Positions 1-49,272 of a DNA stretch of 49,272 nucleotides are shown here, in pieces; position 1 is the stretch's first letter; each line of letters opens with the position of its first letter. The stretch comes from Clostridioides phage phiCD508. The DNA lies in the sequence record OR295560.1. One strand, written 5' to 3'. The notes under the pieces are model-generated. The model saw nothing but the letters and a program-made list of their open reading frames with translations, was not told where the DNA came from and did no database searches. The position numbers and the translations under genes are program-made.

Positions 1-55
1 GAGGACGATATCTTACTTTTAATTGGAAGAGATAGAATGTTTAAGTTAGGAAGTA
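1..55. repeat. Terminal direct repeat, copy 1 (identical to 49218-49272)
   Basis: Bases 1-55 (gaggacgatatcttacttttaattggaagagatagaatgtttaagttaggaagta) recur exactly at the window end. This is either a circular-contig k=55 overlap or the att core. Confidence 0.9.
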
Positions 56-200
56 GTAATTATAGTTAGTTATTACTTTCTTTCACATATTTTTATTATT
101 TCAATAAGATTATTTCCAAATAATAATTTATTCAATGATAATAAGTAGAAAATAAAATTTTGAATCAATATAAAATTTAATGAAATGAGGTAGTAAAATC

Positions 201-719
201 ATGGATAAAAAAATAGACATAGCGAAGTTTATAGTAAATAGAATTGATTACTATATTGAAAAATCAGATAATAAAGCTAGTTTTTTACTATTATTAAATA
301 GCGCAATTATAGGTTTTTTATTTTCAGGGAAGGAAAAAATAATGAATCACTTAAGTATAAGTAATATCAGATGTTTAGAGATGCTATTTTACATTGTTAT
401 ATTATGTATATTTGTTATTTCAATTTATTTTTCGATTATGGTTTTAAAGCCAAGGAATTCTAAAATAGAAAATGAATATAAATCTATTTTTTATTATAAA
501 GAGATAGCATCTTTAAATAATGAACAGTACAAAGAAGCATTTGAAAATGCATTTAAAGACGAAGAAAACTTGATTAATGATGCACTTGTTCAAATAAAAG
601 AATTATCTTTAATCTGTGATAAGAAAATGTATAATGTAAAAAAGTCAGTAGAAGCTTTTATTTTAGGTGGTATTATATTGTTTATATATATACTTGTAGT
701 AGTTTTTAATGCTATTTAG
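201..719 (+). CDS. Small membrane protein with 3 predicted TM segments (possible SLATT/DUF4231-like pore-forming effector); convergent with the cyclase-Nudix gene
   Basis: 172 aa. Hydrophobic segments are ASFLLLLNSAIIGFLF, MLFYIVILCIFVISIYFSIMVL and a C-terminal AFILGGIILFIYILVVVFNAI. There is an amphipathic N-terminus and a helical middle. RBS is gaggtagtaaaatcATG. Confidence 0.5.
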   Translation: MDKKIDIAKFIVNRIDYYIEKSDNKASFLLLLNSAIIGFLFSGKEKIMNHLSISNIRCLEMLFYIVILCIFVISIYFSIMVLKPRNSKIENEYKSIFYYKEIASLNNEQYKEAFENAFKDEENLINDALVQIKELSLICDKKMYNVKKSVEAFILGGIILFIYILVVVFNAI

Positions 720-782
720 AAAATGTTTTATTTGGTTAGTATTCCTCTATGAAGATAGAATCAAATCATAGAAGAATACTAT

Positions 783-2369
783 TTACATATTTGTAGATTC
801 TTGTAATTGATTTTCATTTAATTTTTTAAATGCTAGTTTTAAAGTTTCTTTAAAATCAGGTACTGTGTTTTCATTAAAATCTTCAAGTTCATCCTCTCCT
901 ATCCATGCAAGTTCATTATGTTTTGATGTGGGTTCAAATTTAGAAATATCATAATCATTTATTATTTCTGCGAGAGTTATAATGCCTTTGTGTAAACCAT
1001 CACTTTTTTTAACTTGATAAATTGCTAGAGGTATAGGTTGGCAATCATCTTTTCTTGTGCAATCAGTAATAGGTTCAATGTTTATATTAAAATCTTTTTC
1101 ATATTCATCTTTAATAGTATTTATAATTGAAGTTTCTAGACTTGCCTTAGCACAACCAAATTCCCATTTACTCGCATTATTATTTCTATTATCACTTCTT
1201 TTCGCAATTAATATTTTTGAAGTTGATTTATTATAACAAACCGCAACACAGTGTAATTCCATTAAATCTACTTTTATATAGTCTTTATCTATTGTATTTT
1301 TATCATAACTGGGGTTTGTTTTAGAAATTACGTCACCTATTTTTTCAATCTTATCACTAAGGTTTCTGTCTATAAGTATTTTATCCAAAGCCTTGTCTAC
1401 AGAATTAAACATAAAAGAATCAATTAGTAATTTACTTTCTCCTTTTTTATTAAAAAAATATTCTCGAACCAATTCATTTTCTTCTATTTCATCAAAAGAA
1501 AAACTATCATCAAATTCTATATCATTATTTTTTCCTTTATTATGATACCAAATGATAGGGTATAGTTTATCTTTCCAGATACCCTTTAATTTTTTATATG
1601 TAATTATATGTAATTTAGATAAAATATCAGTTTTTCTTGATAATATATAAGCTAGTTCAAAACTAAGAACAAGTCTTTCTGGGCATGTTTGCTTTGATAT
1701 TCTGAAACCAGCATCAATATCATTTCCTAAGAACTCAAATATTTTATAATTATTGGATAAATCGTACATAGCAGAAATATTTTCATATTGTTCATTATTT
1801 TCTAAAGCATTAAAATTAGGATTTCTTGATACTATAGCAATCCAGGCCGCTCCTTTTAATGAAATAATATTTTGAAGTTTCATTAAGTATTTTTCAGATT
1901 CAGAAAATCCTTCTAGTGTAGAGAATATATTACCACTTTTTATATCTTTAGCAGTGCTTGTTAAAATATCAAAGATTATATCTATGTATTTATAAATTTC
2001 ATCATAATTTTTTAGTACGATAATGAAAATTACCTCATCACCAAGAACTCTCCAAAGTTGTGCTTTAAGGTTTTCATAAACTCTATATTGTAACTTACGA
2101 ATTATATGTGATAATACCTTAGCCCATCCGCTATAATTTATATTTTTATATAATGATGAATTAGCTATATCAAAAGAAAAGAACAAAATCACTTCTGGAT
2201 GATTAGGTTCTTTTTCTTTTTCATAAATATCAGTATTAATATTTTCTTGAAGTTTTTCCTTATACTTTTTAAGATTAAAAGCGTTTTCGTTTTTAGCTGA
2301 ATTATGAACATTATTTACATTTTGAGTTTTATATTCTTTATCATCTACCATTGTAAATATCCTAACCAT
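783..2369 (-). CDS. Two-domain protein: N-terminal class III nucleotidyl cyclase-like (CHD/palm) domain fused to a C-terminal degenerate Nudix-like domain
   Basis: 528 aa. FSFDIANSS then 44 residues to LGDEVIF matches the spacing of the two metal-binding Asp motifs of class III cyclases. FLGNDIDAGFRISKQTCPERLVLSFELAYIL resembles the (V/I)NxAARxE--hhVSe region. The C-terminal KILIAKRSDN..SKWEFGCAKASLETSIINTIKDEYEKDFNI..ELAWIGEDEL resembles a Nudix fold, but REx2EE is replaced by KDEYEKD. It overlaps the upstream peptidase gene by 25 nt. Confidence 0.5.
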   Translation of the reverse strand: MVRIFTMVDDKEYKTQNVNNVHNSAKNENAFNLKKYKEKLQENINTDIYEKEKEPNHPEVILFFSFDIANSSLYKNINYSGWAKVLSHIIRKLQYRVYENLKAQLWRVLGDEVIFIIVLKNYDEIYKYIDIIFDILTSTAKDIKSGNIFSTLEGFSESEKYLMKLQNIISLKGAAWIAIVSRNPNFNALENNEQYENISAMYDLSNNYKIFEFLGNDIDAGFRISKQTCPERLVLSFELAYILSRKTDILSKLHIITYKKLKGIWKDKLYPIIWYHNKGKNNDIEFDDSFSFDEIEENELVREYFFNKKGESKLLIDSFMFNSVDKALDKILIDRNLSDKIEKIGDVISKTNPSYDKNTIDKDYIKVDLMELHCVAVCYNKSTSKILIAKRSDNRNNNASKWEFGCAKASLETSIINTIKDEYEKDFNINIEPITDCTRKDDCQPIPLAIYQVKKSDGLHKGIITLAEIINDYDISKFEPTSKHNELAWIGEDELEDFNENTVPDFKETLKLAFKKLNENQLQESTNM

Positions 2370-2866
2370 TTCCCTCTATTAGATGCTGCATAAGAGGAAA
2401 CATTAAAGTATTCTGCAATTTTTGAAGTGTCGACCTTATTACCTACTGTGTTTTCATCCATAATTCTTTTATATTCATGTTTAGGCATCAACAAGGCTGC
2501 TGCAAATTCATTGGATTGATACTCCTTATTGGTATTGCCACTTCTAAAATACTGATTTCCATCTTGACTATTCCATAGTTCATCATCAATGCCATAACCC
2601 ATGTGTAAAAATAAATGTCCAAGTTCATGAGCAATGGTAAAATTCTTTCTGGTATCTGGTTGATAAGGAGATACCACTATTTCAAATGAATCATCAACTT
2701 TTCTAATAAATCCATCAGAGTATCCACTTAAAGAACTATCTTCTATTACCTTGCCTCCTAAAGCATCAACAACTTGATTTATATTTACTATTGGAATTTG
2801 GATTTTGTATGTTTGGATAATATCTTGGGTTATATCATTAATTAGCTCTCTGATTTTGAAATCCAT
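2345..2866 (-). CDS. ImmA/IrrE-family (DUF955) zinc metallopeptidase
   Basis: 173 aa with the HEXXH motif IAHELGHLFLH and the family-typical NEFAAALLMP segment. An extended -10 (tgatataat) lies about 60 nt upstream on the minus strand. The gene is translationally coupled to the downstream gene. Confidence 0.75.
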   Translation of the reverse strand: MDFKIRELINDITQDIIQTYKIQIPIVNINQVVDALGGKVIEDSSLSGYSDGFIRKVDDSFEIVVSPYQPDTRKNFTIAHELGHLFLHMGYGIDDELWNSQDGNQYFRSGNTNKEYQSNEFAAALLMPKHEYKRIMDENTVGNKVDTSKIAEYFNVSSYAASNRGKWLGYLQW

Positions 2867-3567
2867 AAAATCACATCCTTATATAATATTTTATTTAAAT
2901 AATTATTTATTATAATATTCATTATATCAAAAACTATTTTTTTTGGTACATTTAATATTAATTATTTTCATTAACCTTTTGTATTATACAATATAATTAT
3001 ACCATATAAAAACTGTTTTTTGTCGAATGTATGTTTGAAAAAATAAAAATTAGTAAATTATCTTAAAAATAATTAGATATACTTTGGAAGCAATAAGAAT
3101 ATTAACAATAAGATAAATCGTTGAAATACCAACATGTGTTAAATAATAACAATAAACAAATAATAAAATTTTAGATTTCAGAATATGAAAGAACCAAAAA
3201 ACGATTAACTAGTAATCTTAATTAAATTCATTTAGTTGATGTTAAAGTATGAAAACTATAGTAGAAGTTGTAATAATAAAACGAACGAAAATTATCATAC
3301 TAAAACATAATACATGCTATAATTGTATTAGATAAATGCTTGAATATATACCAAAAGTACTCTTTTTATAAGAGTGCTTATTTTTTTGAAATTCATCAAC
3401 ATATAAACTATCAAGAACATTACTCAACACACCTTAAAATTGATTTAAATTCTTTTTCATACACAAAGTTATATGATATAATAAAAAAGTAAATATGTAA
3501 CCCCAACACATCTTTACTAAGTCAAACATTATTATATAGAGCATTCTTCATTATGGAGAGTGCTTTT

Positions 3568-3756
3568 TCATTTCTTTGAATAATCATGTTGATTATTTAT
3601 AATATTTTCATTTAATTTATCTTTATCTATCAAATTTAATGCACAATTAATACAAATGTTAGTTTTCATATGACTTTTCTTATGAAAAGTAATATACTTA
3701 TTATCATCTTTATTTATTCCTTTATTACAGTAATCACATAATATAGTCTTAGTCAT
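3568..3756 (-). CDS. Small Cys-rich zinc-ribbon protein (hypothetical)
   Basis: 62 aa with CDYC..(37)..CINC. An isolated ORF inside a 1.8-kb AT-rich gene-poor stretch. Confidence 0.3.
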   Translation of the reverse strand: MTKTILCDYCNKGINKDDNKYITFHKKSHMKTNICINCALNLIDKDKLNENIINNQHDYSKK

Positions 3757-4015
3757 ATTTTTATTCCTTTCATTTTATATTTTCTATAATTAAGTTTAAC
3801 ATATTTAGTATATACCTATGTATATATATATTTAAAACAATGTTTTTTATTGCAATATAGAATATATTGTATAAATAAAAAATATGAAGAATAGATATTT
3901 GATAATTGTAAAATTATGTTATAATTAAAATGCAAGAATAATCTTGTGGAACTACAATCTAAGAGTGGAGCTTCATTTTCTACATTCCATCCCTTAAAAG
4001 GAAGGAGGTGGAGAA

Positions 4016-4156
4016 ATGAGCGAATTTTTACTAGGAGTGTTAGCTAGTTTAACAGCTAGCTTTATTACATATATTATTTCCAGAAAAGTAAAAAGCCACT
4101 CTGGCAGGAGTGACTTTGAGCTTGATGTAAAAATCAAGTTTAATAAAAAACGACAT
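4016..4156 (+). CDS. Small hydrophobic peptide, type I toxin-like (TM helix plus basic tail)
   Basis: 46 aa: MSEFLLGVLASLTASFITYIISRKVKSHSGRSDFELDVKIKFNKKRH. Strong RBS aaggaaggaggtggagaaATG. The ORF sits between about 30-bp inverted repeats (3947-3981 / 4168-4206), followed by a T-run. Confidence 0.4.
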
Positions 4157-4666
4157 TAATATTTAGTTAATGAAACTTCACTCTAGGCTAATAGATTGTA
4201 GTTTCTTTTTTTGTTTTTGATACGAATTTACATCTTTATTATATCGCATTTTGAGAAAAAATAAAACTATGAATATTAGAAATATATTTTATTTTATCTC
4301 TAAGTATATATATTATTAGCCACCTAAAAAACTTTCACAAAAACAAAAAGAGTATATGTTTTTGATAACTGGATGATATAACTTATAACTCATTTTACAA
4401 TTCTTAGTTCATATATATTTATGCCACTAAATTTCTCTAGTTTTGCCGATTTAGTTTTATTCTACAACTAAAATAATACAATAGAATTAGTTATTATTCA
4501 ACAGGATAGTTTGAAAGTTGAATAATTTTATAGAAATGAATAATATTTTACGCTTGAAAAAACAGACTAAATACGTAGAATATTTGGTAAAACTTACCTG
4601 TATTAATTGCAATTAGAAGGTTCTATTATTAATTTAAATTAAAATTAATTCAAGGAAGTGACATAA

Positions 4667-5056
4667 ATGGAACAACAAGATGTAATAGACAAACTACGTA
4701 GGGGCGAATTAATGCTAATGGAGTATTTGTGGAATAAAAAGTCTATTTTATCAAAAAAAGAAATAATAGAAGCAATGAAAAAGAGATATAAGTGGAGGAA
4801 AAGTACTACAGAAATTCTTTTAAAAAGATTGGTAAAGATGAAAACATTAAAAAAGAAGAGGATAGGTTTTCAGTTTAGCTATGAAGTATTAGTAACTAAA
4901 AAAGAATATTTAAATGCTAGAAAAGAAGAAAGAGATATAAGTAAATATGATAATTTTTTTGCACGAATATTCACAACTATACATAAAAGAGATAAGATGA
5001 CAGAAGAACAACTAAAGGCATTTATAAAAAATATGGAAAAAATTGGAAAAATATAA
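4667..5056 (+). CDS. BlaI/MecI/CopY-family (penicillinase-repressor type) winged-helix regulator
   Basis: 129 aa; SKKEIIEAMKKRYKWRKSTTEILLKRLVKMKTLKKKRIGFQFSYEVLVTKKEYL is a BlaI-like N-terminal DNA-binding domain. A perfect 12-bp palindrome TAATTGCAATTA lies about 60 bp upstream (4597-4608). Confidence 0.6.
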   Translation: MEQQDVIDKLRRGELMLMEYLWNKKSILSKKEIIEAMKKRYKWRKSTTEILLKRLVKMKTLKKKRIGFQFSYEVLVTKKEYLNARKEERDISKYDNFFARIFTTIHKRDKMTEEQLKAFIKNMEKIGKI

Positions 5057-5148
5057 TTTATATATATCAATTAATTTTAAATTAAATTTGTTATAATATT
5101 TATATATATTTTAATATGCAGAAATTTACAAAAAAGGGGGTGCATATT

Positions 5149-5529
5149 ATGGGATTTAAAAAATTACCTGATTCAGAATTAAAAGTAATGAAGTTTATCT
5201 GGGGATTAGAAAAAAAAGTAGCTTCAGGAGAAGTTGTAGAAGCTATGAAACAAACTTATGGTTGGAATAAAAATACAACACTAACAATATTGTCTAAGCT
5301 TGCAAAGAAAAACTATTTGTATTCTCAAAAAACAAGCAAGTGTACATATTATACTATCGCTGTAAGAGAAAAAGATTATTTAAAAGTTGAAACAAAAAAA
5401 TTCTTTAGTTTTTTTCATAATAATTCTTTAAAAAGTTTTTTCACTGCTTTAAATGATGAAGAAAATTTAAGTGATGATAAATTAGATATGTTAGAGGAAT
5501 GGGTGAAAAATTGGGAAGAAGATGAATAA
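5149..5529 (+). CDS. Second BlaI/MecI/CopY-family regulator (paralogue; ORF track starts at 5116, likely start is ATG 5149)
   Basis: MGFKKLPDSELKVMKFIWG...YGWNKNTTLTILSKLAKKNYLYSQKTSKCTYYTIAVREKDYL. RBS is aaaagggggtg before ATG 5149. Confidence 0.6.
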   Translation: MGFKKLPDSELKVMKFIWGLEKKVASGEVVEAMKQTYGWNKNTTLTILSKLAKKNYLYSQKTSKCTYYTIAVREKDYLKVETKKFFSFFHNNSLKSFFTALNDEENLSDDKLDMLEEWVKNWEEDE

Positions 5530-5535
5530 AATGAA

Positions 5536-5556
5536 TGTGATACTAAAATGATACTA
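5536..5556. repeat. 21-bp direct repeat tgtgatactaaaatgatacta, copy 1 (attP arm-site candidate)
   Basis: Exact repeat of 5728-5748. Additional aatatagaaa repeats lie between the two copies. Confidence 0.6.
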
Positions 5557-5679
5557 ATATGTTTTATAGCGTGTTAAAAAATATAGAAAATATAGAAATA
5601 ATAGAAGAAAATTAATGTAATAGATAAGGTTTTATCAGATTAAAAAGAAAATCAATAGAATGGGAATAGTAAATAAAAA

Positions 5680-5716
5680 AGTCGTAAGCCTTGTATTTTC
5701 AAGGTTTGCGACTTTT
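5680..5716. terminator. Bidirectional rho-independent terminator between the BlaI-like gene and int
   Basis: 14-bp stem agtcgtaagccttg/caaggtttgcgact with a tattttc loop, flanked by an A-run upstream and tttaaaaaaa downstream. Confidence 0.6.
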
Positions 5717-5727
5717 AAAAAAATCTT

Positions 5728-5748
5728 TGTGATACTAAAATGATACTA
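5728..5748. repeat. 21-bp direct repeat tgtgatactaaaatgatacta, copy 2 (overlaps the int stop codon)
   Basis: Exact match to 5536-5556. Confidence 0.6.
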
Positions 5749-6807
5749 TATATTTAAATTATCTAGTTTTTGGGCAACTTCAAGTTGCTTATTTGGGTAT
5801 AAATGTGAATATGTATTCCAAGTTGTTTCTACTTTTTCATGCCCCAATCTTTCTGCTATAGTTAATATATTTACATCCATATTTACCAATAATGACGCAT
5901 GAGAATGTCTCAAATCATGCACTCTAATTCTTTTTACATTAGATAACTTACAGCATCTATCTAGCTCTTTAGAAAGATAACTTTTAGCAAATTTAAATAT
6001 TCTTTCATTATCTTTTAAGTCATATAGCTTAGATAGATAATCTTTTATATTATTATATAAGAAATGTGGGATAGGGACAACACGTTTACTTTTAGGAGTT
6101 TTAGGAGAAGAAACAATATCCTCTCCATTTAGTCTTATGTAGCTTTTTTCGACGCTTATTTTATTTTCGAAAATATCTTTTGGAGTAAGAGCTAACAACT
6201 CCCCTAGTCTAAGACCTGTCCAAAATAAAATTTCAAATGCTAGTCTAGGTTCTGATTTCTTTTCAAATTCAATAAATTTTTTAAACTCTTCTAATGTCCA
6301 AAAGTTCATTTCATCTGCGTTTTTTTTACCGATAGAACCTGCCAAATGAGCAGGATTAGAAGGCAAGTTATAATATTTAACTGCATAATTTAATACAGCA
6401 ACAAGCTGGTTGTTTATCGTTTTAATATATGTTTGGCTATAATCACTTTTTAATAATTCGTTTTGCCATCTTCTTATATGTGTTGCAGTAATTTCATTTA
6501 TTTTTAGACTTTTAAAAAAAGGTAAAATTCTAAAGTTTATTAAATACTTTTTAGTTTCTAATGTAGATAATTTTAATCTAGAAGACATATCGTGCATGTA
6601 TTCTTCTATGAGACTTTCAAAACTCATATCAGTACTCATTTTAGATTTATTCAAAAATTCTCTTTCAAACTCTAGAGCTTCTTTTTTAGTTTTAAAACCT
6701 CTCTTAATTTTCTTTTTCCTATCCCCATCGAAGTCTGTAAAATAAAAGCTAGCATACCAACTTTTTCTTTGTTCGTCTTTGTAAGCAGGCATTTTAGACA
6801 CCCCCAA
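5746..6807 (-). CDS. int: Tyrosine integrase/site-specific recombinase (TTG start at 6807 or ATG at 6792)
   Basis: 353 aa. The C-terminal catalytic region HDLRHSHASLLVNMDVNILTIAERLGHEKVETTWNTYSHLY carries the R..HxxR..Y signature. It has an N-terminal SAM-like domain. Confidence 0.9.
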   Translation of the reverse strand: MGVSKMPAYKDEQRKSWYASFYFTDFDGDRKKKIKRGFKTKKEALEFEREFLNKSKMSTDMSFESLIEEYMHDMSSRLKLSTLETKKYLINFRILPFFKSLKINEITATHIRRWQNELLKSDYSQTYIKTINNQLVAVLNYAVKYYNLPSNPAHLAGSIGKKNADEMNFWTLEEFKKFIEFEKKSEPRLAFEILFWTGLRLGELLALTPKDIFENKISVEKSYIRLNGEDIVSSPKTPKSKRVVPIPHFLYNNIKDYLSKLYDLKDNERIFKFAKSYLSKELDRCCKLSNVKRIRVHDLRHSHASLLVNMDVNILTIAERLGHEKVETTWNTYSHLYPNKQLEVAQKLDNLNI

Positions 6808-6868
6808 TTATGTCATTTTAATATTACAATAATTATAACATGTTAGATATGCTATCTAAATAATTGTT

Positions 6869-7084
6869 TTATTTTCCTCTTCTTTTTATTTCTTGAAGCT
6901 TGTAATATTTACACAGTTCTAAGAAGTCTTCTTCTAGTGCTATAGATAAGTCTAATATCGTAGATATACCTATATCTTTGTACTCTTGATTTTCTAGTTT
7001 TGATATATAACTTCTGTTACGTCTCATTTTTTCTGCTAATTCTAGTTGTGTCATTCTTTTCTTTTTTCTTAATTTTTTCAACAT
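6869..7084 (-). CDS. XRE-family HTH transcriptional regulator
   Basis: 71 aa; HTH is MTQLELAEKMRRNRSYISKLENQ. Confidence 0.55.
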   Translation of the reverse strand: MLKKLRKKKRMTQLELAEKMRRNRSYISKLENQEYKDIGISTILDLSIALEEDFLELCKYYKLQEIKRRGK

Positions 7085-7154
7085 TTATTAAAATCCACCT
7101 TTTAATTATTTTTATGACATTTTTATAATTAATAGTTTGTGTAATTTCTTGTAA

Positions 7155-7179
7155 AAAATGTTCCTCATTAGAACATTTT
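7155..7179. promoter_or_regulatory. Perfect 9-bp inverted repeat AAAATGTTC-N7-GAACATTTT (operator candidate)
   Basis: Seen directly in the sequence, upstream of the 6869..7084 HTH gene. Confidence 0.4.
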
Positions 7180-7214
7180 TTGGTGGAAAAATGTGTTAAA
7201 ATGTAAGTAAGAAA

Positions 7215-7245
7215 AGCACTTTCAAAGCACTATAAAAATAGTGCT
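7215..7245. promoter_or_regulatory. AGCACT half-site cluster including the perfect palindrome AGCACTATAAAAATAGTGCT (operator candidate)
   Basis: Three AGCACT/AGTGCT half-sites within 31 bp. Confidence 0.4.
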
Positions 7246-7495
7246 GAAATAGATAAACAAATAAAAGTAATAAGGAGGAAAGATAGATTCTAGAGGGAAA
7301 TCATTATCATTTTTAAGAACGTATGTTCAGTTGGTGGGATAGAAAAATACTTTACAGGGGATGGTTTATTTGAATGAGAATGAAAATATGAGTTTATATG
7401 TCAGTAAGTTAAAAGAAGTATTGAAAAATAATTCAGAAGAGTATAAAAAAATAAGAGCTAAAATAAATGAAATTTATAATCTAAATGAAAAGAAA

Positions 7496-7523
7496 GAATA
7501 AAAGGGCTTTAGCTCTTTTATTC
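7496..7523. terminator. Hairpin gaataaaag-ggctttagc-cttttattc (bidirectional terminator at the 3' end of the repressor gene)
   Basis: 9-bp perfect stem, followed by a T-rich run. Confidence 0.5.
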
Positions 7524-7934
7524 TTTCTTAGTATTAACTGCTTTATAATAAGCATTATCTATCATTTTTTTTATTGCATTTTTATCATCTGAATCTAAAG
7601 ATGCTAATCTATTTATTAGTTCGTTAACTTCATTATCTTCTTTTGAGTTAACTTTTTTTAATAATTCATCATCTTGTTGAGTGTTAGGTTGTATTTTACC
7701 TAATTTAGTTAATAGCTCCTTTAAAGTTAAATTTAATCCAAAACTCATTTTTTCAAGCATATCTAAAGTAGGTTCAACAGCTTTACCATTCCTTGGGTCT
7801 CTGTTTTTTTCTATCTTATCTATATATGTATGGCTCACACCACAAAGATTAGAAAATTCTCTAAGAGATAAGTTATGTTCACTTCTATATTCTTTAATAA
7901 TTTCTGCTAATGTTTGCATAATTTCACACCTCAC
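7518..7934 (-). CDS. CI-like phage repressor (XRE HTH, no S24 peptidase domain)
   Basis: 138 aa. HTH is LSLREFSNLCGVSHTYIDKIEKN. It is the first gene of the leftward operon, facing a divergent cro-like gene. Confidence 0.7.
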   Translation of the reverse strand: MRCEIMQTLAEIIKEYRSEHNLSLREFSNLCGVSHTYIDKIEKNRDPRNGKAVEPTLDMLEKMSFGLNLTLKELLTKLGKIQPNTQQDDELLKKVNSKEDNEVNELINRLASLDSDDKNAIKKMIDNAYYKAVNTKKE

Positions 7935-8023
7935 CTAAATAATAGTTGACTTAATTATATCAGAAAAATGTAAACTATTGTTAACAAAAATAAAAATTTA
8001 GTAAAAAATAATTGACAAGAGTA

Positions 8024-8052
8024 AAAAAAAGACGTATACTATGATTAACAAA
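8024..8052 (+). promoter_or_regulatory. Sigma-A type promoter (PR-like) driving the cro-like gene
   Basis: TTGACA (8024-8029), 17-nt spacer, TATACT (8047-8052). RBS aggaggg at 8071-8077. Confidence 0.55.
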
Positions 8053-8083
8053 AAGGTTATAAATAAAGTTAGGAGGGATTAAT

Positions 8084-8296
8084 ATAAAAAATAATTTACA
8101 ATATATTAGAAAAGAATCTAGAATATCACAAAAAAAATTCGCTGATAAGATAGGTATATCAAGACCGTATTTATCTAGAATAGAAAACGGTAAGGTTAAT
8201 CCGAGTTTAGAAATAGCGCATAAAATCTCGCTCGAAACAGGGAAAACAATAAATGAAATTTTTTTTGATTTTACTGTAAATCATAGTAAACTATAA
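8084..8296 (+). CDS. Cro-like XRE HTH protein with an apparent non-AUG start (ATA 8084 or ATT 8078)
   Basis: The frame is open from 8063 to TAA 8294-8296 and encodes ...ISQKKFADKIGISRPYLSRIENGKVNPSLEIAHKISLETGKTINEIF, a canonical HTH_3. There is no in-frame ATG/GTG/TTG after the RBS. Confidence 0.45.
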   Translation: MKNNLQYIRKESRISQKKFADKIGISRPYLSRIENGKVNPSLEIAHKISLETGKTINEIFFDFTVNHSKL

Positions 8297-8590
8297 GGTT
8301 TTAATTGTACCTTGAAAACTAAATATAAAATATTTTAAAGGAGCAAGTATATGAAAAATAAAGAAAAAGAAATAATCATTAGAGGAATTTTAATAGGAAT
8401 TTTTTATTTTTTAGGAATTGTATTTAGTAATACTTTTTTTAAATAATAAATAGAAGGGGTAGGTGAAATACCAACTCCCCAAATCAAAATAACACTTTGG
8501 AAGTTAAATATAGAATATTCAAAAGAGGTGATTAGATGGAAATAGAGCAAACAACAATACGCCTGCTAAAAAGCAGACGAAAGTTGAATA

Positions 8591-8809
8591 TTAATTTCTA
8601 TTTTGGTTAGGCGAAAGACCTAACAAAAAATCTGTAGATACATTAAGTTTGTTAGAAATTAATATTAAAGTTTCTATATTTGGCTCTCTTGAACCCGATT
8701 CATAATATTGATATGCACGTTCTGAGATACCAAACAAACTAGCAAATTGCTTTTGAGTCATATTCATTTGCTTTCTTACTAGCTTAATATTATCTTTGAA
8801 TTTAGTCAT
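8591..8809 (-). CDS. XRE-family HTH repressor (start at the internal ATG 8809 of the 8591..8938 ORF)
   Basis: MTKFKDNIKLVRKQMNMTQKQFASLFGISERAYQYYESG... Confidence 0.6.
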   Translation of the reverse strand: MTKFKDNIKLVRKQMNMTQKQFASLFGISERAYQYYESGSREPNIETLILISNKLNVSTDFLLGLSPNQNRN

Positions 8810-8845
8810 AACTACACGCTCCAATAAAAAAATAAATAAATTTCT

Positions 8846-8904
8846 TGACACGAACAATATTAGCGTGTAATATATAAAACATAGCACGAACAATATTGGC
8901 GTGT
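8846..8904. promoter_or_regulatory. Divergent switch region: -35 TTGACA / -10 TAATAT promoter with two 20-bp operator copies
   Basis: The operator copies are cACGAACAATATTaGCGTGt and cACGAACAATATTgGCGTGt, each with inverted ends ACACG..CGTGT. Copy 1 spans the promoter spacer. Confidence 0.55.
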
Positions 8905-8921
8905 TAAATAAAAAGGAGAGG

Positions 8922-9116
8922 GTGAAAATAAATAACAATTTAAAACTACAACGTGAAAAAGTTGGCTTAACGCAATTAGAGGTTGCTCAAAAAGCCAAAA
9001 TAACAGAGAGAAGCTATCAATATTATGAAGCTGGCGAACGTCTCCCAAACATTCGTACAGCTTTAAAGATAGCTAGAATTTTAAATACTAATTGTGAAAA
9101 ACTCTTTAATGAATAA
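8922..9116 (+). CDS. XRE-family HTH protein (GTG start after RBS aaaaggagag)
   Basis: VKINNNLKLQREKVGLTQLEVAQKAKITERSYQYYEAGERLPNIRTALKIARIL. Confidence 0.6.
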   Translation: MKINNNLKLQREKVGLTQLEVAQKAKITERSYQYYEAGERLPNIRTALKIARILNTNCEKLFNE

Positions 9117-9157
9117 TAGCATAAAAGGACTCAGATTACAAGAAAGGAGCTTTAGAT

Positions 9158-9952
9158 ATGAATAATTTGCAACTTAACAATAAAAATACAATAACAACAT
9201 TAGAAATTGCTGATATGTTAGAAATTAACCATTGGGAAGTATTGAGAAAATTAGAAGGCACAGAAAAAACAAAAGGAATTATTGATATTCTTAACGACAA
9301 CAATTTTGTTGTGGTTGATTACTTTATAAAATCAGCTTATTTAGATTTAAAAAATGAAAATAGAAAATGTTACAATGTAACGAAATTAGGCTGTGACTTT
9401 TTAGCAAATAAATTTACTGGAGAAAAAGGAATTATTTTTACAGCTAGATATGTAAAAAGATTTAATAAAATGGAGCAAGAGTTAAAAGAACAACAACCTA
9501 AACTACCAACTACATACAAAGAAGCATTACAACAGTTATTAATAGAAGTTGAAGAAAAAGAACAATTACAATTAGAAAATCAAGAAAAAGATAAGGTAAT
9601 TCAGTTACAGCAACCAAAAGTATTATTTGCTGATTCGGTAGCGTCTTCTGACAATTCAATCCTAGTTGGAGAATTAGCAAAGTTGCTTAGACAGAATGGA
9701 ATTGATACAGGACAAAATAGATTATTTGACTGGTTAAGAAATAATGGTTACTTAATAAAACGTAAAGGTGAGGATTACAATACACCAACTCAAAAAAGTG
9801 TAGATTTAGGAGTTATAGAAACAAAAGAAGGTACAAGAGTACATCCAGATGGTCATACAAGTATTACTAAAACACCTAAGATTACTGGTAAGGGACAAAT
9901 ATACTTTATTAATAAGTTTAAAAAGAACAATCAAATATCAATGTTAGGTTAA
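9158..9952 (+). CDS. Phage antirepressor (Rha-like N-terminal domain plus KilA-C-like C-terminal domain)
   Basis: 264 aa. N-terminal ITTLEIADMLEINHWEVLRKLEG; C-terminal LFADSVASSDNSILVGELAKLL...LFDWLRNNGYLIKRK. Confidence 0.65.
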   Translation: MNNLQLNNKNTITTLEIADMLEINHWEVLRKLEGTEKTKGIIDILNDNNFVVVDYFIKSAYLDLKNENRKCYNVTKLGCDFLANKFTGEKGIIFTARYVKRFNKMEQELKEQQPKLPTTYKEALQQLLIEVEEKEQLQLENQEKDKVIQLQQPKVLFADSVASSDNSILVGELAKLLRQNGIDTGQNRLFDWLRNNGYLIKRKGEDYNTPTQKSVDLGVIETKEGTRVHPDGHTSITKTPKITGKGQIYFINKFKKNNQISMLG

Positions 9953-10035
9953 AGATTAATAGCACTTTGAAAACTAAATACAGAATATTTTGAAATATAT
10001 TGTTTTAATTAATTATTAACTAGGAGGTTAAATAC

Positions 10036-23344: not shown

Positions 23345-23406
23345 GGGACTGTCTTGATGGAGGGTCTTTTTTAATTCCCAAAACGACAAACAAACGAGGT
23401 GGTGAT

Positions 23407-24108
23407 GTGCAAGATGTCAAAGAAAAGGTAAAACAAGATTACATAAAAGGTATGAAACAAAAGGAAATATCAGCAAAGTATGACATTAGTTTAAACACTT
23501 TAAAGTCATGGATAAAAAGATACAATTGGGCTAGTGAGAAAAAGAAGGGTGCACCTAAAAATAAAAGAGGTGCACCCATAGGTAATAAAAATGCCACTGG
23601 TCCTCCTGGAAATAAAAATGCTGAAAAGTTTGGTTTCTTCTCAAAATATCTACCTGAAGAAACTAGGGAATTAATACAAGAAATATCTATAAAAGATAAA
23701 TTTGATATTCTTTGGGAACAGATAACAATTCAATATGCAGCAATAATAAGAGCACAAAAGATAATGTATGTTAAAGACAAGGAAGAAATGATTAAGGAGT
23801 TAAAGAAACATGAAAGCACAGAAAATGGTGAGAAGATAGAGTATGAATTTCAATTTGCATGGGATAGGCAAGCATCTTTTCTTAATGCACAGAGTAGGGC
23901 TATGAGTGAGTTAAGGAGTTTAATTAAACAGTATGATGAAATGATTCATAAGGATTGGAATTTAGCTACAGAGGAGCAGAAAAATAGAGTTGAAAAGTTA
24001 AAATGTGAAGTTGATAACCTAAAGAAAAGTGATACTGGAGATGATTCAAAAATTTGGGTTGAAGCTATACAAAATATTGCAATGAAACGTGGTGTTAACA
24101 ATGGATAA
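23407..24108 (+). CDS. terS: Terminase small subunit
   Basis: [47 protein letters not shown], the GNKNA-repeat TerS signature of Firmicute phages. Confidence 0.75.
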
Positions 24109-25510
24109 AGCTTTATTGACACTATTAGATTGTTATTGGGATAATCCTGTTTGGTTTGCAGAGGATATGTTAAATTTTAAAGCTGACAAGTGGCAATCTG
24201 ATGTTCTGATGGCTTTAGCTCAAACCCCAAAAGTATCTATTAGAAGTGGTCAAGGAGTAGGTAAAACTGGATTAGAAAGCATTGCAACTGTATGGTATTT
24301 AAGCACTAGACCTTTTCCGAAAGTAGTTGCTACAGCTCCAACACGACAACAATTATATGACGTACTATGGGCTGAAATAGCTAAATGGCTAAGTAATAGC
24401 AAGGTTGAGAAGCTACTTGAGTGGACTAAAACAAAAGTGTATATGAAAGGCTTTGAAGAAAGATGGTGGGCTACAGCTAGAACAGCAGTAAAGCCCGAGA
24501 ATATGCAAGGTTTTCATGAAGATTATATGTTATTTGTTGTTGATGAAGCTTCGGGAGTTGCTGACCCCATTATGGAAGCTATATTGGGAACATTATCAGG
24601 TGCAGAAAATAAGCTTCTTTTATGCGGAAACCCAACTAGAACGAGTGGAACGTTTTACGATAGCCATAATAGAGACAGAGATTTATATAAAACATTTAAA
24701 GTATCTTCTTTAGACAGCCCTAGAACATCAAAAGATAATATTGAAATGCTAAAAAGAAAGTACCATGAAGGTTCTGACCCTTGGCGTGTCAGAGTACTTG
24801 GAGAGTTTCCAAAAGGTGAAAGTGATTCTTTAATATCTTTAGAAGCTGTTGAAACAAGCACAATAAGAGAAGTGAATATATCTAATGACTATATATTAAA
24901 TATAGGGGCGGATATAGCAAGATATGGTGATGATGAAACCATAATAGCTCCAAGAATAGGTGGGAAAGTATTTGATTTATTAACTTATTCAAAAAAAGAT
25001 ACAATGGAAACAGTAGGAAATATATTAAGAGCAGTTGATAAATTTAAAAATATGTATCATCAAATTAACAGAGTAAAAATAAAAACGGATGATGATGGCT
25101 TAGGTGCAGGTGTAACAGATAGATTAAAAGAAGTTATAAGACATGAAAGACTTAAATATGAAGTTATACCTATTCAAAATGGTTCTAGTGCTATAGAAAA
25201 AGATAAGTACTATAATAAAGCTTCTGAAATGTGGGATAACATGAGGGAGGAATTAGATGCAAATTTAAGTAGTTTTATACAAAATAAAGAAGCTATAATA
25301 CAGCTTCCTAATGATGATAAACTTATTAAACAACTATCAAATAGAAAATATACAGTAGATTCAAAAGGGAAAATACAAATAGAAAGTAAAAAGGAAATGA
25401 AAAAAAGAATTGGAGAATCACCCGATAGAGCTGATGCAGTAATATATTCGTTTGCAGAAAATAACAATACTGATTTATCTTTACTGAAAGGGGGTAGTGT
25501 ATGGGGATAA
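24089..25510 (+). CDS. terL: Terminase large subunit (probable start ATG 24101)
   Basis: Walker [10 protein letters not shown], Walker [11 protein letters not shown], and a C-terminal nuclease domain. Confidence 0.9.
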
Positions 25511-28022: not shown

Positions 28023-29357
28023 ATGAATGTAATAACTGGAGAAATGGACTCAATGAATGCGTTAATATCTAGTATAAAACCTTCTGATATTCCTTTAGCT
28101 AAAGATATAGACATAGAAGCTTTAAAATCTATAGATGATGACCCTCTTGAGGTAGTTGTTGAGATACCAGCTACAAAATCTAAAAGGGGATGGAATTATA
28201 CTGCTAAAAGCTTGAAAGATATTGTAGATTACACTAATGAAAATACTCTTAATGGCTTTTTAGGACATCAAAAAGCTGAAAATATATCAACTGAATTTGC
28301 ACTACCTGTAACGCATTGGATAGGTGCAGAAATGAAAGGGGATAAAGCTTATTTCAGAGGGCTGATTGATGCTGATGCAACAAATTTAAAAAGATGGATT
28401 AGAACTAAAAGGATAAAAGAAGTTAGTATATTTGGTTATCCAAAACTTAAAAAGAGTGCTAAAGGCGAAATGAATGTTATAGGATATGAGCCACTATCTA
28501 TTGATTGGACTCCTCTACATAGACCAGGTATGCCAACAAGTATTGTAGGTATGGAAATGAGTCCTAATGGCGAACAGTTAGATGGAACTTTTGAAGCTTT
28601 AAGAATAGATTTAAGAGAAGCTTTAAAAGCTAAGTTTTCTATTAATGATAATAATTCATATCTCTATATACAAAACATAAGATATGATAACAATACTGTC
28701 ATATATGAGTTGGAGCAAAATGGATTATGCAAGCTTTATAGTATACCATTTACTATAGTTGAAAATAAAATAAATCTAGGTGAAGAAATTGAAGTAATAA
28801 AGAAAATAAGCTATGAAGCTAAAGGAGAAATGAAAGGAGAGGAAAACAAATTGGAAGGAAAAGAGTTAATAAAAAATGTCAAAGGATTACTGCAAACTGG
28901 TGAAATATCATATTCAGAGGTCATACAAGGAATAGGCTTAACTAAGGAAATTGTGACAGGAGAGATGGAAGATGTAAAAAGTTCATTAAAAGCAGAAAAA
29001 GAATTAAGAGAAGTGAAAAAAGTACTTGGAATAGTAGGAGAGATGGACACAGTTGAAGTGGCAAAAAAGGCTTCAAAAGCTTTAGAAAATGAGAAAAAGG
29101 AAGCTTGGAACTGTATAGTTAATAAAGTAATTAAAGATAAAGTGTCAGGTGAAATAGCTCAAACATTAGTTAAGAAAATGTTAAATGTTGAGGAAGGCTC
29201 AAGTGAAGAAGTAATAACAGGAGAAATAGAAAATATATTAAATGATGAGTTTGTAAAAAATACAATGTCTAATATGTATAAAGATAATCCAACAACAACA
29301 GGATTATTAAACTCTAGCAATAATGGAAGTTTAACAACTAAGAAAAATAGAATATAA
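28023..29357 (+). CDS. Scaffolding protein, possibly with an N-terminal prohead-protease-like domain
   Basis: 444 aa with an acidic coiled C-terminal half. The N-terminus has GFLGHQ and KEVSIFGY, reminiscent of HK97-family (S78) protease His/Ser motifs. An (I/V)TGEM(D/E) motif repeats through the protein. Confidence 0.4.
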   Translation: MNVITGEMDSMNALISSIKPSDIPLAKDIDIEALKSIDDDPLEVVVEIPATKSKRGWNYTAKSLKDIVDYTNENTLNGFLGHQKAENISTEFALPVTHWIGAEMKGDKAYFRGLIDADATNLKRWIRTKRIKEVSIFGYPKLKKSAKGEMNVIGYEPLSIDWTPLHRPGMPTSIVGMEMSPNGEQLDGTFEALRIDLREALKAKFSINDNNSYLYIQNIRYDNNTVIYELEQNGLCKLYSIPFTIVENKINLGEEIEVIKKISYEAKGEMKGEENKLEGKELIKNVKGLLQTGEISYSEVIQGIGLTKEIVTGEMEDVKSSLKAEKELREVKKVLGIVGEMDTVEVAKKASKALENEKKEAWNCIVNKVIKDKVSGEIAQTLVKKMLNVEEGSSEEVITGEIENILNDEFVKNTMSNMYKDNPTTTGLLNSSNNGSLTTKKNRI

Positions 29358-29372
29358 AGGAGTGATGTTTAT

Positions 29373-29756
29373 ATGGCATTTAAAGGTCAACCAACGCCAA
29401 GCACAATAACACAGATAACAAGAGCAAAAATAAGTGATGGGAAATCTGTAAGAGTTATTCTTTCAGAAGGTGAAAGCACTAAAACACAACAATTTTATCT
29501 TATAAATGGATTCTTTGGAGTCGCTATGCAAGACGGAGAAAAAGGCGATGAAGTTACTTTGCAAATAGAGCAAGCTGAATACGAAACGGATAATATTGTT
29601 ACATCAGAAGCTTTTGAGGCAGGGAAATTGATTTATTGGGATAATACAGCTAAGAAATTTACTACTACATCTGCAAGTAATAGGCTAGTTGGTAGAGTAA
29701 CAGATGGGAAAGACAGTAATAATGTAATTTGGTTTATATTATTACCTCAACAATAG
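29373..29756 (+). CDS. Head decoration/DUF2190-like protein
   Basis: 127 aa, between the scaffold and the major capsid protein. Confidence 0.4.
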   Translation: MAFKGQPTPSTITQITRAKISDGKSVRVILSEGESTKTQQFYLINGFFGVAMQDGEKGDEVTLQIEQAEYETDNIVTSEAFEAGKLIYWDNTAKKFTTTSASNRLVGRVTDGKDSNNVIWFILLPQQ

Positions 29757-47153: not shown

Positions 47154-47252
47154 GTTCTTTTTTTATATAAATTAAAAATAATTTCCTTTTTTAGTTATAT
47201 ATTTTTTATTCTTATCTATAATAAAAAAATTCTATTAAAAGGAGATTGAAAA

Positions 47253-47471
47253 ATGAAGAAAATAATTGTAATTTGCATTCTAGTTCTAATGTTAATTATA
47301 CCTACTATGGGGGAGATATTTATAATGGTAGAAAATATAAAGCTAGAGGGGCTAGAACAAAACCCAACAAGTTGTTACATTTCTAATCCAGGGATTATGG
47401 GAGAAGCAAAATGTGATGCAGCATACTTTATTATAGCTGCAGATTTCGTTAACAATTTAAAGGTAAAATAA
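47253..47471 (+). CDS. Small secreted/membrane protein (signal peptide, 2 Cys)
   Basis: MKKIIVICILVLMLIIPTMG...; own AT-rich promoter region and a downstream terminator. Confidence 0.35.
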   Translation: MKKIIVICILVLMLIIPTMGEIFIMVENIKLEGLEQNPTSCYISNPGIMGEAKCDAAYFIIAADFVNNLKVK

Positions 47472-47489
47472 TAAATTAATACATTTAAA

Positions 47490-47516
47490 GGACTTAGATA
47501 ATTCTAGGTCCTTTTT
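47490..47516 (+). terminator. Rho-independent terminator (near-identical copy of 22506-22535)
   Basis: ggacttag-ataatt-ctaggtcc followed by ttttt. Confidence 0.6.
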
Positions 47517-47538
47517 AATACAAAAATTAGGAGGAAAT

Positions 47539-47970
47539 ATGAATTTAACAATAGTTTTTTTAGCAACAAATATATTTATAAAATTAGTAATATTAGCAAT
47601 AGCATTTGATACACTGTTAGGTTGCTTAAGAGCAATAAAAACACATCAGTTTAACTCAAGTTTTGGAATAAATGGTGGAATAAGAAAAGTCGCAATGATA
47701 GCATGTATATTTTTTCTAGCAGTAGTTGACATTCTTACAAAGTTTAACTTTTTATTTATGTTACCACAAGATTGGGTTGATTTCTTACGACTAAATCATC
47801 TTGGAATATCTGAATTTTTCTCTATTTTATTTATTCTATATGAAAGTGTAAGTATATTAAAAAACATGTATTTGTGTGGGTTACCAGTGCCTAAAAAATT
47901 AAAAGATAGAATAGGTAACTTATTAGATACTATGACAGATGAATTAAATGTTAAAGGAGGTAGTAAATAA
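47539..47970 (+). CDS. Holin (multi-TM, TcdE/phage holin-like)
   Basis: 143 aa with 3-4 TM segments, directly upstream of and overlapping the endolysin start. Confidence 0.6.
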   Translation: MNLTIVFLATNIFIKLVILAIAFDTLLGCLRAIKTHQFNSSFGINGGIRKVAMIACIFFLAVVDILTKFNFLFMLPQDWVDFLRLNHLGISEFFSILFILYESVSILKNMYLCGLPVPKKLKDRIGNLLDTMTDELNVKGGSK

Positions 47971-48809
47971 TGAAAATATGTATAACAGTAGGACACAGTA
48001 TTTTAAAAAGCGGAGCATGTACTTCTGCTGATGGAGTAGTTAACGAGTATCAATACAATAAATCTCTTGCCCCAGTGTTAGCAGATAGATTTAAAAAAGA
48101 AGGTCATAAGGCAGATGTAATAATATGCCCAGAAAAGCAGTTCAAAACTAAGGACGAGGAAAAGACTTATAAAATACCTAGAGTTAATAGTGGAGGATAT
48201 GACTTACTTATAGAGTTGCATTTAAATTCAAGTGGTGTAGGAGCTTTTGGAACAGAATTATTTTACTATAGTGAAAAAGGGAAGGAATATGCGCAGAGGG
48301 TGGTAGATAAACTGTCTAAACCTTTCATAAGAAAAAAAGGAGATAAAGAAGTAGGTAATAGAGGTGCTAAATTAGATAAAAGTTTATATATTTTAAATAG
48401 TTCTAAACCTACTGCAATACTAATTGAAAGTTTCTTCTGTGATAATAAAGAAGATTATGAGAAAGCTAAGAAACTAGGTCATGAAGGTATTGCTAAGTTA
48501 ATTGTAGAAGGTGTATTAAATAAAAATATAAATAATGAGGGAGTTAAACAGATGTACAAACATACAATTGTTTATGATGGAGAAGTTGATAAGATACTTG
48601 CGAATGTGCTTAGTTGGGGCTATAGTCCAAGCAAAGTTTTAGTTTGTGATATAAAAGATTACGTACCAGGTCAGACGGAAAATTTATATGTTGTAGGAGG
48701 TGGCGCATGTGAAAAGATAAGTTCTATTACTAAAGAAAAATTTATTATGATAAAAGGTAATGATAGATTTGATACACTTTATAAAGCATTGGATTTTATT
48801 AATAGATAG
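47970..48809 (+). CDS. Endolysin, N-acetylmuramoyl-L-alanine amidase (Amidase_3) with a C-terminal binding domain
   Basis: MKICITVGHSILKSGACTSADGVVNEYQYNKSLAPVLA...GGYDLLIELHLNSS; the N-terminus closely resembles the C. difficile phage endolysin CD27L as I recall it. Confidence 0.9.
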   Translation: MKICITVGHSILKSGACTSADGVVNEYQYNKSLAPVLADRFKKEGHKADVIICPEKQFKTKDEEKTYKIPRVNSGGYDLLIELHLNSSGVGAFGTELFYYSEKGKEYAQRVVDKLSKPFIRKKGDKEVGNRGAKLDKSLYILNSSKPTAILIESFFCDNKEDYEKAKKLGHEGIAKLIVEGVLNKNINNEGVKQMYKHTIVYDGEVDKILANVLSWGYSPSKVLVCDIKDYVPGQTENLYVVGGGACEKISSITKEKFIMIKGNDRFDTLYKALDFINR

Positions 48810-48883
48810 ATAAAAGTTATCAACTAGAAGTGGTTGTTTGTTGTGATAACTCTATTATTGTAATATAATGTAAATATATTATT

Positions 48884-49252
48884 GTGATAATGGAGGATTT
48901 ATGTATGGATGCATTGGTTTATGAGAGATTTGTAAGAGCAGCTTTTAGTATTAAACTTAATAACTTGATTAATAGAAGCGAAGATTTAGGTGGATTGGCT
49001 GAAGCTGATATCTTTAGAGCAGCAAATAATTTACATGAATTAAATGAGATAAAAATAGGTACTGGGTATGCTATTGCAATATTTAATAATGAGATATTAG
49101 AGTCTTGTAATGTTTCTGATAATGATAGCAATAGAATGATTGAACTATTTGATAGAAGTTTAATTGCAACTTCTAGGGAGGAAATATTGGATATTATAAG
49201 AGAATATGAAACTTATAGAGGACGATATCTTACTTTTAATTGGAAGAGATAG
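48884..49252 (+). CDS. Hypothetical protein whose 3' end lies in the terminal repeat
   Basis: 122 aa; the last 11 codons and the stop are inside 49218-49272. Confidence 0.4.
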   Translation: MIMEDLCMDALVYERFVRAAFSIKLNNLINRSEDLGGLAEADIFRAANNLHELNEIKIGTGYAIAIFNNEILESCNVSDNDSNRMIELFDRSLIATSREEILDIIREYETYRGRYLTFNWKR

Positions 49253-49272
49253 AATGTTTAAGTTAGGAAGTA
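49218..49272. repeat. Terminal direct repeat, copy 2 (identical to 1-55)
   Basis: Exact 55-nt identity with the window start. It overlaps the last 11 codons and the stop of the 48884..49252 ORF. Confidence 0.9.

Follow-up and report, generated by a model that had tools for sequence, protein, structure and literature searches.

The window analyzed here, i.e., the whole 49,272-nt stretch of DNA from Clostridioides phage phiCD508 (sequence record OR295560.1), has the layout of a temperate C. difficile myovirus. The accessory region (1-5529) is followed by the minus-strand integrase gene (5746-6792) and by HTH repressors, and further modules comprise the antirepressor, replication, terminase, portal, capsid, tail sheath, tape measure and baseplate genes. 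The small and large terminase subunits are encoded on the plus strand at 23407..25510 (phrog_509, E=1e-101, and phrog_2, E=3e-49, respectively), and the lysis genes encode a holin (47539-47970) and an amidase endolysin (47970-48809).

The two ends of the window are identical. Direct comparison shows that bases 1-55 and 49218-49272 carry the same sequence, GAGGACGATATCTTACTTTTAATTGGAAGAGATAGAATGTTTAAGTTAGGAAGTA, without a single mismatch, and that no other overlap length fits among all those tested between 40 and 79 nt; the window is thus one 49,217-bp unit plus a 55-nt overlap, and both points of an earlier note on this DNA are confirmed. A scan of both strands found only these two copies of the 55-mer in the window, both on the plus strand. 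At the base composition of the window (29% G+C), 55 bases would match by chance with a probability of about 2.5e-29; the 49,217-bp unit otherwise contains exact direct repeats of at most 22 nt. The 55-mer consists of 2 nt of a codon, 10 full codons (GRYLTFNWKR) and the stop codon of ORF 48884..49252, and 20 nt of intergenic sequence. The earlier description of the repeat as the last 11 codons and the stop of this ORF was right about the stop, and the count has to be amended to 10 codons and 2 nt, with the 20-nt spacer added after the stop. The right copy (49218..49272) is the one in natural surroundings, at the 3' end of a small ORF that comes after the endolysin gene; the left copy (1..55) is its redundant duplicate, a detached 3' end of the same ORF with the 20-nt spacer. 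ORF 48884..49252 is a conserved plus-strand phage ORF of 122 aa, a homolog of phiC2 p39 that belongs to phrog_5384 (E=4.8e-62; function unknown); Pfam and PADLOC scans of this ORF gave no match. Its place between the endolysin gene and the gene for a PycTM-like protein is the same in phiC2 and in the prophages described below, and the point at which the contig is cut within it is arbitrary.

The first gene after the junction, at 201..719 on the plus strand, encodes a PycTM-like two-transmembrane effector (Pfam PF18967, E=3e-12; PADLOC PycTM, E=2.9e-31) of the Pycsar effector family. No cyclase match was obtained among the neighboring ORFs scanned around this gene, and such an orphan effector on a prophage may merit a look. 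Among related C. difficile prophages that share the integrase, some code for a protein with the metallo-beta-lactamase fold that is Apyc1-like (anti-Pycsar), as at 1477-2145 in locus L005 and 2441-3154 in locus L009. An overlapping minus-strand gene pair at 783-2866 encodes a 528-aa protein, which has no Pfam domain and belongs to phrog_6174 (function unknown), and an M78/IrrE-like peptidase, for which the best PADLOC match is CapP (E=3.6e-25). Both phiC2 (p41/p42) and each of the eight chromosomal prophages analyzed retain the pair, which may constitute a prophage-borne defense or regulatory module. The last phage gene of the accessory region, at 5116..5529 on the plus strand, is the second of two genes for BlaI/CopY-like (Penicillinase_R) regulators (Pfam PF03965, E=2.4e-22); it directly precedes the attachment site in the window and is the last prophage gene at the end opposite the integrase.

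A repeat at both ends of a temperate phage sequence could reflect either the assembly of a circular genome or the attachment sites of a prophage. Since attP would join the prophage ends in the free phage, only integrated prophages separate these two readings, and the contiguity of the joined window ends in free phages cannot discriminate between them because attP is contiguous there as well. Chromosomal prophages were therefore fetched with the PycTM-like protein (window 201-719) as an anchor; the use of ORF 48884..49252 as an anchor gave a single draft contig of 5 kb, which demonstrates contiguity but not integration status. Eight loci (L014-L021) encode the identical PycTM-like protein; they lie on 2.7-4.3-Mb contigs of six C. 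difficile genomes. The gene order is the same in all eight prophages, namely the tail genes, holin, endolysin, the small ORF, the PycTM-like gene, a gene for a 522- or 528-aa protein (split into two ORFs in L018) and the M78 peptidase gene, followed in most of them by one or two genes for BlaI-like regulators and then by host genes. At these eight loci the lysis genes lie upstream of the PycTM-like gene, and host DNA begins only ~5.7 kb downstream of it. Each of the eight prophages contains one copy of the 55-mer, located as in the window 200 nt upstream of the PycTM-like gene, that is, ~5.9 kb inside the prophage end and with phage genes on both sides. When the window ends are joined, the alignment runs unbroken across the junction at 96-99.5% identity in 10 loci (phiC2, the 5-kb draft contig, and L014-L021). 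In the records of phiC2, phiCD27, CDKM9 and phiCDHM19, the window end and start abut with exactly one shared 55-nt overlap, and the 55-mer is present once, in the middle of the record (27-29 kb; 29338-29392 in phiC2). Among all 29 fetched related loci that hold the 55-mer, none has it twice; the phiMMP02 record has no occurrence of it. Scans of IMG/VR and of the metagenome collection with the 55-mer did not retrieve the contig from which the window stems.

Two of the chromosomes, CP049958.1 (L015 and L016) and CP149698.1 (L019 and L020), carry two related prophages each at different sites, and in both cases the two prophages share an identical PycTM-like protein and an identical 55-mer. Short-read assemblies of such two-prophage strains could yield chimeric phage contigs.

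The prophage-host junctions map to another part of the window, next to the integrase gene. All 10 listed loci with an identical 348-aa integrase, seven of them from contigs of at least 3.4 Mb, adjoin the host gene guaA, encoding GMP synthase, 76 nt after the integrase stop codon. In these 10 loci, guaA is convergent with the integrase gene and is followed by host genes such as groEL and groES. On this side, the last mismatch between the window and the lysogens falls at position 5657, and identity holds from 5658 on in 10 of the 10 listed loci; the guaA-side junction was aligned base by base in five loci, and in the remaining ones the alignment breaks at the same coordinate. At the opposite junction, which was read from other assemblies than the guaA-side junction, identity extends up to 5668 and is lost from 5669 in seven loci, three on large contigs (L014, L016, L018) and four on short contigs (L022-L025). 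The host genes past this junction in the same seven loci encode Metallophos and LysR proteins and a chromate transporter, and these genes lie ~1 kb downstream of guaA in C. difficile-labelled genomes that have no prophage there. Because similarity ends at 5657|5658 on the guaA side and at 5668|5669 on the opposite side, the identity core of attP is GAATGGGAATA (5658..5668, plus strand), an 11-bp sequence common to the window, the guaA-side junction (five loci, base by base) and the opposite junction (seven loci). The core equals the last codons of the host guaA, encoding E-W-E and continuing into the first two stop-codon bases (protein end …PPGTIEWE). The GuaA protein end is retained in the lysogens, in which only the third base of the stop codon differs, being TAG at the junction of guaA with the integrase side and TAA at the opposite junction. 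Thus, these sequence comparisons place the predicted phage attP at 5658-5668, 77 nt downstream of the integrase gene and overlapping the last guaA codons, and integration would proceed via the 11-bp core into the 3' end of the host guaA, leaving the GuaA protein unchanged. The earlier proposal that attP lies in a gene 3' end that is restored upon integration therefore survives in principle, with the host guaA and the 11-bp core as the site in place of ORF 48884..49252. A tRNA-type att site was ruled out, as the window contains no tRNA genes.

The attP sequence is uninterrupted both in the window and in the record of phiMMP02, which is annotated as circular and is 99.93% identical over window positions 3252-10000. 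The reconstructed unoccupied attB has no exact match in the species-representative genomes; the guaA ends of the four C. difficile-labelled representatives are diverged, and in three of these four an apparent prophage remnant is retained beside guaA, as found by a scan with the GuaA protein. In three C. difficile-labelled species representatives without a full prophage at guaA, a segment of ~570 bp between guaA and the Metallophos gene (L044 5773-6291, L045 5774-6345, L046 6893-7470) is 85-88% identical to the prophage DNA upstream of the BlaI-like genes, and the sequence just past the guaA stop resembles the hairpin of the phage P' arm described below. This segment has the appearance of a degraded prophage left behind at the same hot spot.

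The attP core is flanked by two direct repeats and a hairpin. A 20-nt sequence, GTGATACTAAAATGATACTA, occurs at 5537..5556 and again as an exact direct repeat at 5729..5748 (both on the plus strand), where it overlaps the integrase stop codon. Two exact copies flanking the core have a chance expectation of 0.03, and no further copy was found in the window, even with three mismatches allowed. We propose these repeats as candidate arm-type sites of the integrase in the P and P' arms, respectively, in keeping with the arm-binding domain of the enzyme. Between the core and the integrase stop codon, a hairpin with flanking A/T runs at 5677..5716 (inverted repeat I3; 17-nt arms, 88% complementary, 6-nt loop) probably acts as a bidirectional terminator for the integrase gene and, after integration, for guaA. 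In locus L022 (~1180-1290), the host flank on the side of the BlaI-like gene contains, ~65-90 nt past the core, the sequence GTTATACTGGTTTGATACTAT, which resembles the P' arm repeat of the phage, GTGATACTAAAATGATACTAT, at an equal offset; the likeness could be due to chance or be a trace of an earlier integration.

The tyrosine integrase itself (5746..6792, minus strand) has 348 aa when read from ATG and contains the Pfam domains Phage_integrase, Phage_int_SAM_3 and Arm-DNA-bind_4. The listed ORF, 5746..6807, starts at a TTG codon located five codons upstream of this ATG. The 348-aa product is recorded very widely, across thousands of index blocks in the assembly collection, and has the same length as phiMMP02 gp41, whereas the 353-aa product of the TTG start has no record in that collection; hence the TTG-start ORF is probably five codons too long. 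The distance of ~5.7 kb between the left repeat and the integrase, given earlier for the ORF as listed, is correct, with the ATG start giving 5746..6792.

We consider it very likely that the 55-bp terminal repeat is an assembler overlap, produced when a circular phage genome was written out linearly, and does not represent attachment sites. A de Bruijn graph assembler run at k=55 would close the cycle and repeat the first k-mer at the end of the contig; this value is the largest default k of SPAdes and metaSPAdes for short reads. CheckV and similar tools score such a k-mer overlap as a 'direct terminal repeat', a mark of a complete genome. We infer the assembler and its k value from the length of 55 and the context. 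SPAdes contigs with 55-bp overlapping ends have been taken as a sign of a circular genome in two published cases (PMC8483715; PMC8851603), and the relatives CDKM9 and CDKM15 were 'assembled as a circle' (PMC5127024). The true sequence would then be the 49,217-bp unit with a single 55-mer, which ends the small ORF located between the endolysin and PycTM-like genes; the real DNA molecule would lack the duplication. Since attP is carried intact, the window represents the joined, non-integrated arrangement of the phage. The reads would have come from a joined form of the genome and not from a single integrated prophage. Candidates for this form are excised circles, concatemers made during replication, virion DNA with circular permutation and prophages in tandem, all of which would give a graph cycle. 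The circular assembly with an overlap of k-mer length, suggested in the earlier note, is supported by the contiguity of the ends in 10 loci, the single 55-mer in 29 of 29 loci and the intact attP elsewhere in the window. The repeat marks the contig as a complete phage genome that is closed at 49,217 bp. Annotation, counting or comparison of the sequence requires that one copy be removed first. The 55-mer is unfit for att inference, and its reading as attL/attR would misplace the integration site in the wrong gene.

Three other explanations of the repeat were considered. In the first, the graph cycle arose without any free circular or permuted phage DNA, either from two integrated prophage copies in tandem or because two related prophages of one sample, both with the 55-mer, were joined into a chimera. 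The chromosomes CP049958.1 and CP149698.1, each with two related prophages holding the identical 55-mer, provide a setting in which a k=55 graph could in principle cross from one prophage to the other, and tandem copies would recreate an attP-like joint. However, about 44 kb of the window align colinearly with phiMMP02 at 98-99.9%, and the remaining cassette of the window is continuous with single prophages and phiC2 across the junction, with no sign of a chimera at the 55-mer; we regard this explanation as very improbable. Even under it, the repeat stays an assembly overlap, and only the form of the source DNA that one would deduce is changed.

In the second explanation, which we rate as similarly improbable, linear virion DNA packaged in a T7-like manner truly carries the 55 bp as a short direct repeat at its termini, and the contig ends are physical ends. 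Some phages have short exact repeats of this kind. In the clade of phiCD27, phiMMP02 and CDKM9, no cos ends have been found (PMC5127024). On the other hand, the repeat falls within coding sequence, in an ORF that separates the lysis module from the lysogeny module, at a distance of 23 kb from the terminase genes. The records of phiMMP02, phiCD505, CDKM9 and phiCD27 have their base 1 aligned to about window positions 23345-23400, so that the virion-derived records of the relatives open just upstream of the terminase genes, 23 kb from the 55-mer, and the virion-derived records of four relatives (phiC2, phiCD27, CDKM9 and phiCDHM19) contain the 55-mer once, in the middle. Furthermore, read mapping of CDKM9 and CDKM15 revealed no defined genome termini (PMC5127024), and the length of the repeat is exactly a default k of an assembler. 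A real direct terminal repeat would place the genome ends at an unusual position, in a gene that lies between the modules for lysis and lysogeny, and is in our view extremely improbable; if true, it would reveal the packaging mode of the C. difficile myoviruses related to phiCD27, phiMMP02 and CDKM9.

The third explanation, put forward as an alternative in the earlier note, takes the two 55-mers as attL/attR cores of an integrated prophage, with attP in the 3' end of ORF 48884..49252; the window would then have been cut out of a chromosome at the repeats. Although direct repeats that bound a temperate phage with an integrase are a classical att signature, the repeat overlaps the 3' end of a gene, and the joined ends are contiguous in free-phage records as attP would be, we assign it next to no probability, because the 55-mer is single and internal in eight of eight chromosomal prophages, the prophage-host junctions are found 5.6 kb away from the repeat and beside the integrase, ORF 48884..49252 belongs to the phage and not to the host, and the window contains no host DNA and an intact real attP. 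The note's further point, that either layout would suit the accessory genes found between repeat and integrase, is wrong; in the prophages these genes form the end opposite the integrase.

The preferred reading, a k-mer overlap left by circular assembly, agrees with the circular contigs of SPAdes and metaSPAdes at k=55 in the exact 55-nt end repeat, the arbitrary cut inside a gene and the contiguity of the joined sequence in independent genomes. There is no observable difference between such contigs and the window.

The phage adds a new, mosaic member to a known group and is Colneyvirus-like. Its identity to phiMMP02 (Colneyvirus MMP02, JX145341.1) is 99.2% at 23346-47163, where the packaging, head and tail genes lie, and 98-99.9% at 3252-23345, the lysogeny and replication region that includes the integrase and the attP region. 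In contrast, a lysis/accessory cassette of ~5.3 kb (about 47164-49217 plus 1-3251), within which the 55-mer is located, is replaced in the window. The swapped cassette resembles those of phiC2, CDKM9 and chromosomal prophages (up to 99.5% identity to L014); relative to phiMMP02, it carries a different holin/endolysin allele and adds the small ORF, the PycTM-like gene and the gene for the 528-aa protein paired with the M78 peptidase gene. Mosaic relatives are phiC2, CDKM9 and phiCD27.

The attP with an 11-bp core at the guaA 3' end provides a useful annotation for the phiMMP02-type integrase, although it is an ordinary kind of integration site. No report of guaA as the site for phiMMP02-type phages was found in the literature searched, the coverage of which was incomplete; that tyrosine-recombinase elements can integrate at the 3' end of guaA is already known (PMC5704250). 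The elements described there, ATE-1, the Brucella suis IncP island and Gisul2, have a site overlap like that of this phage, in which the att site covers the last guaA codons and the coding sequence stays intact after integration. They differ in being integrative mobilizable elements of other phyla, whereas the element described here is a C. difficile myovirus.
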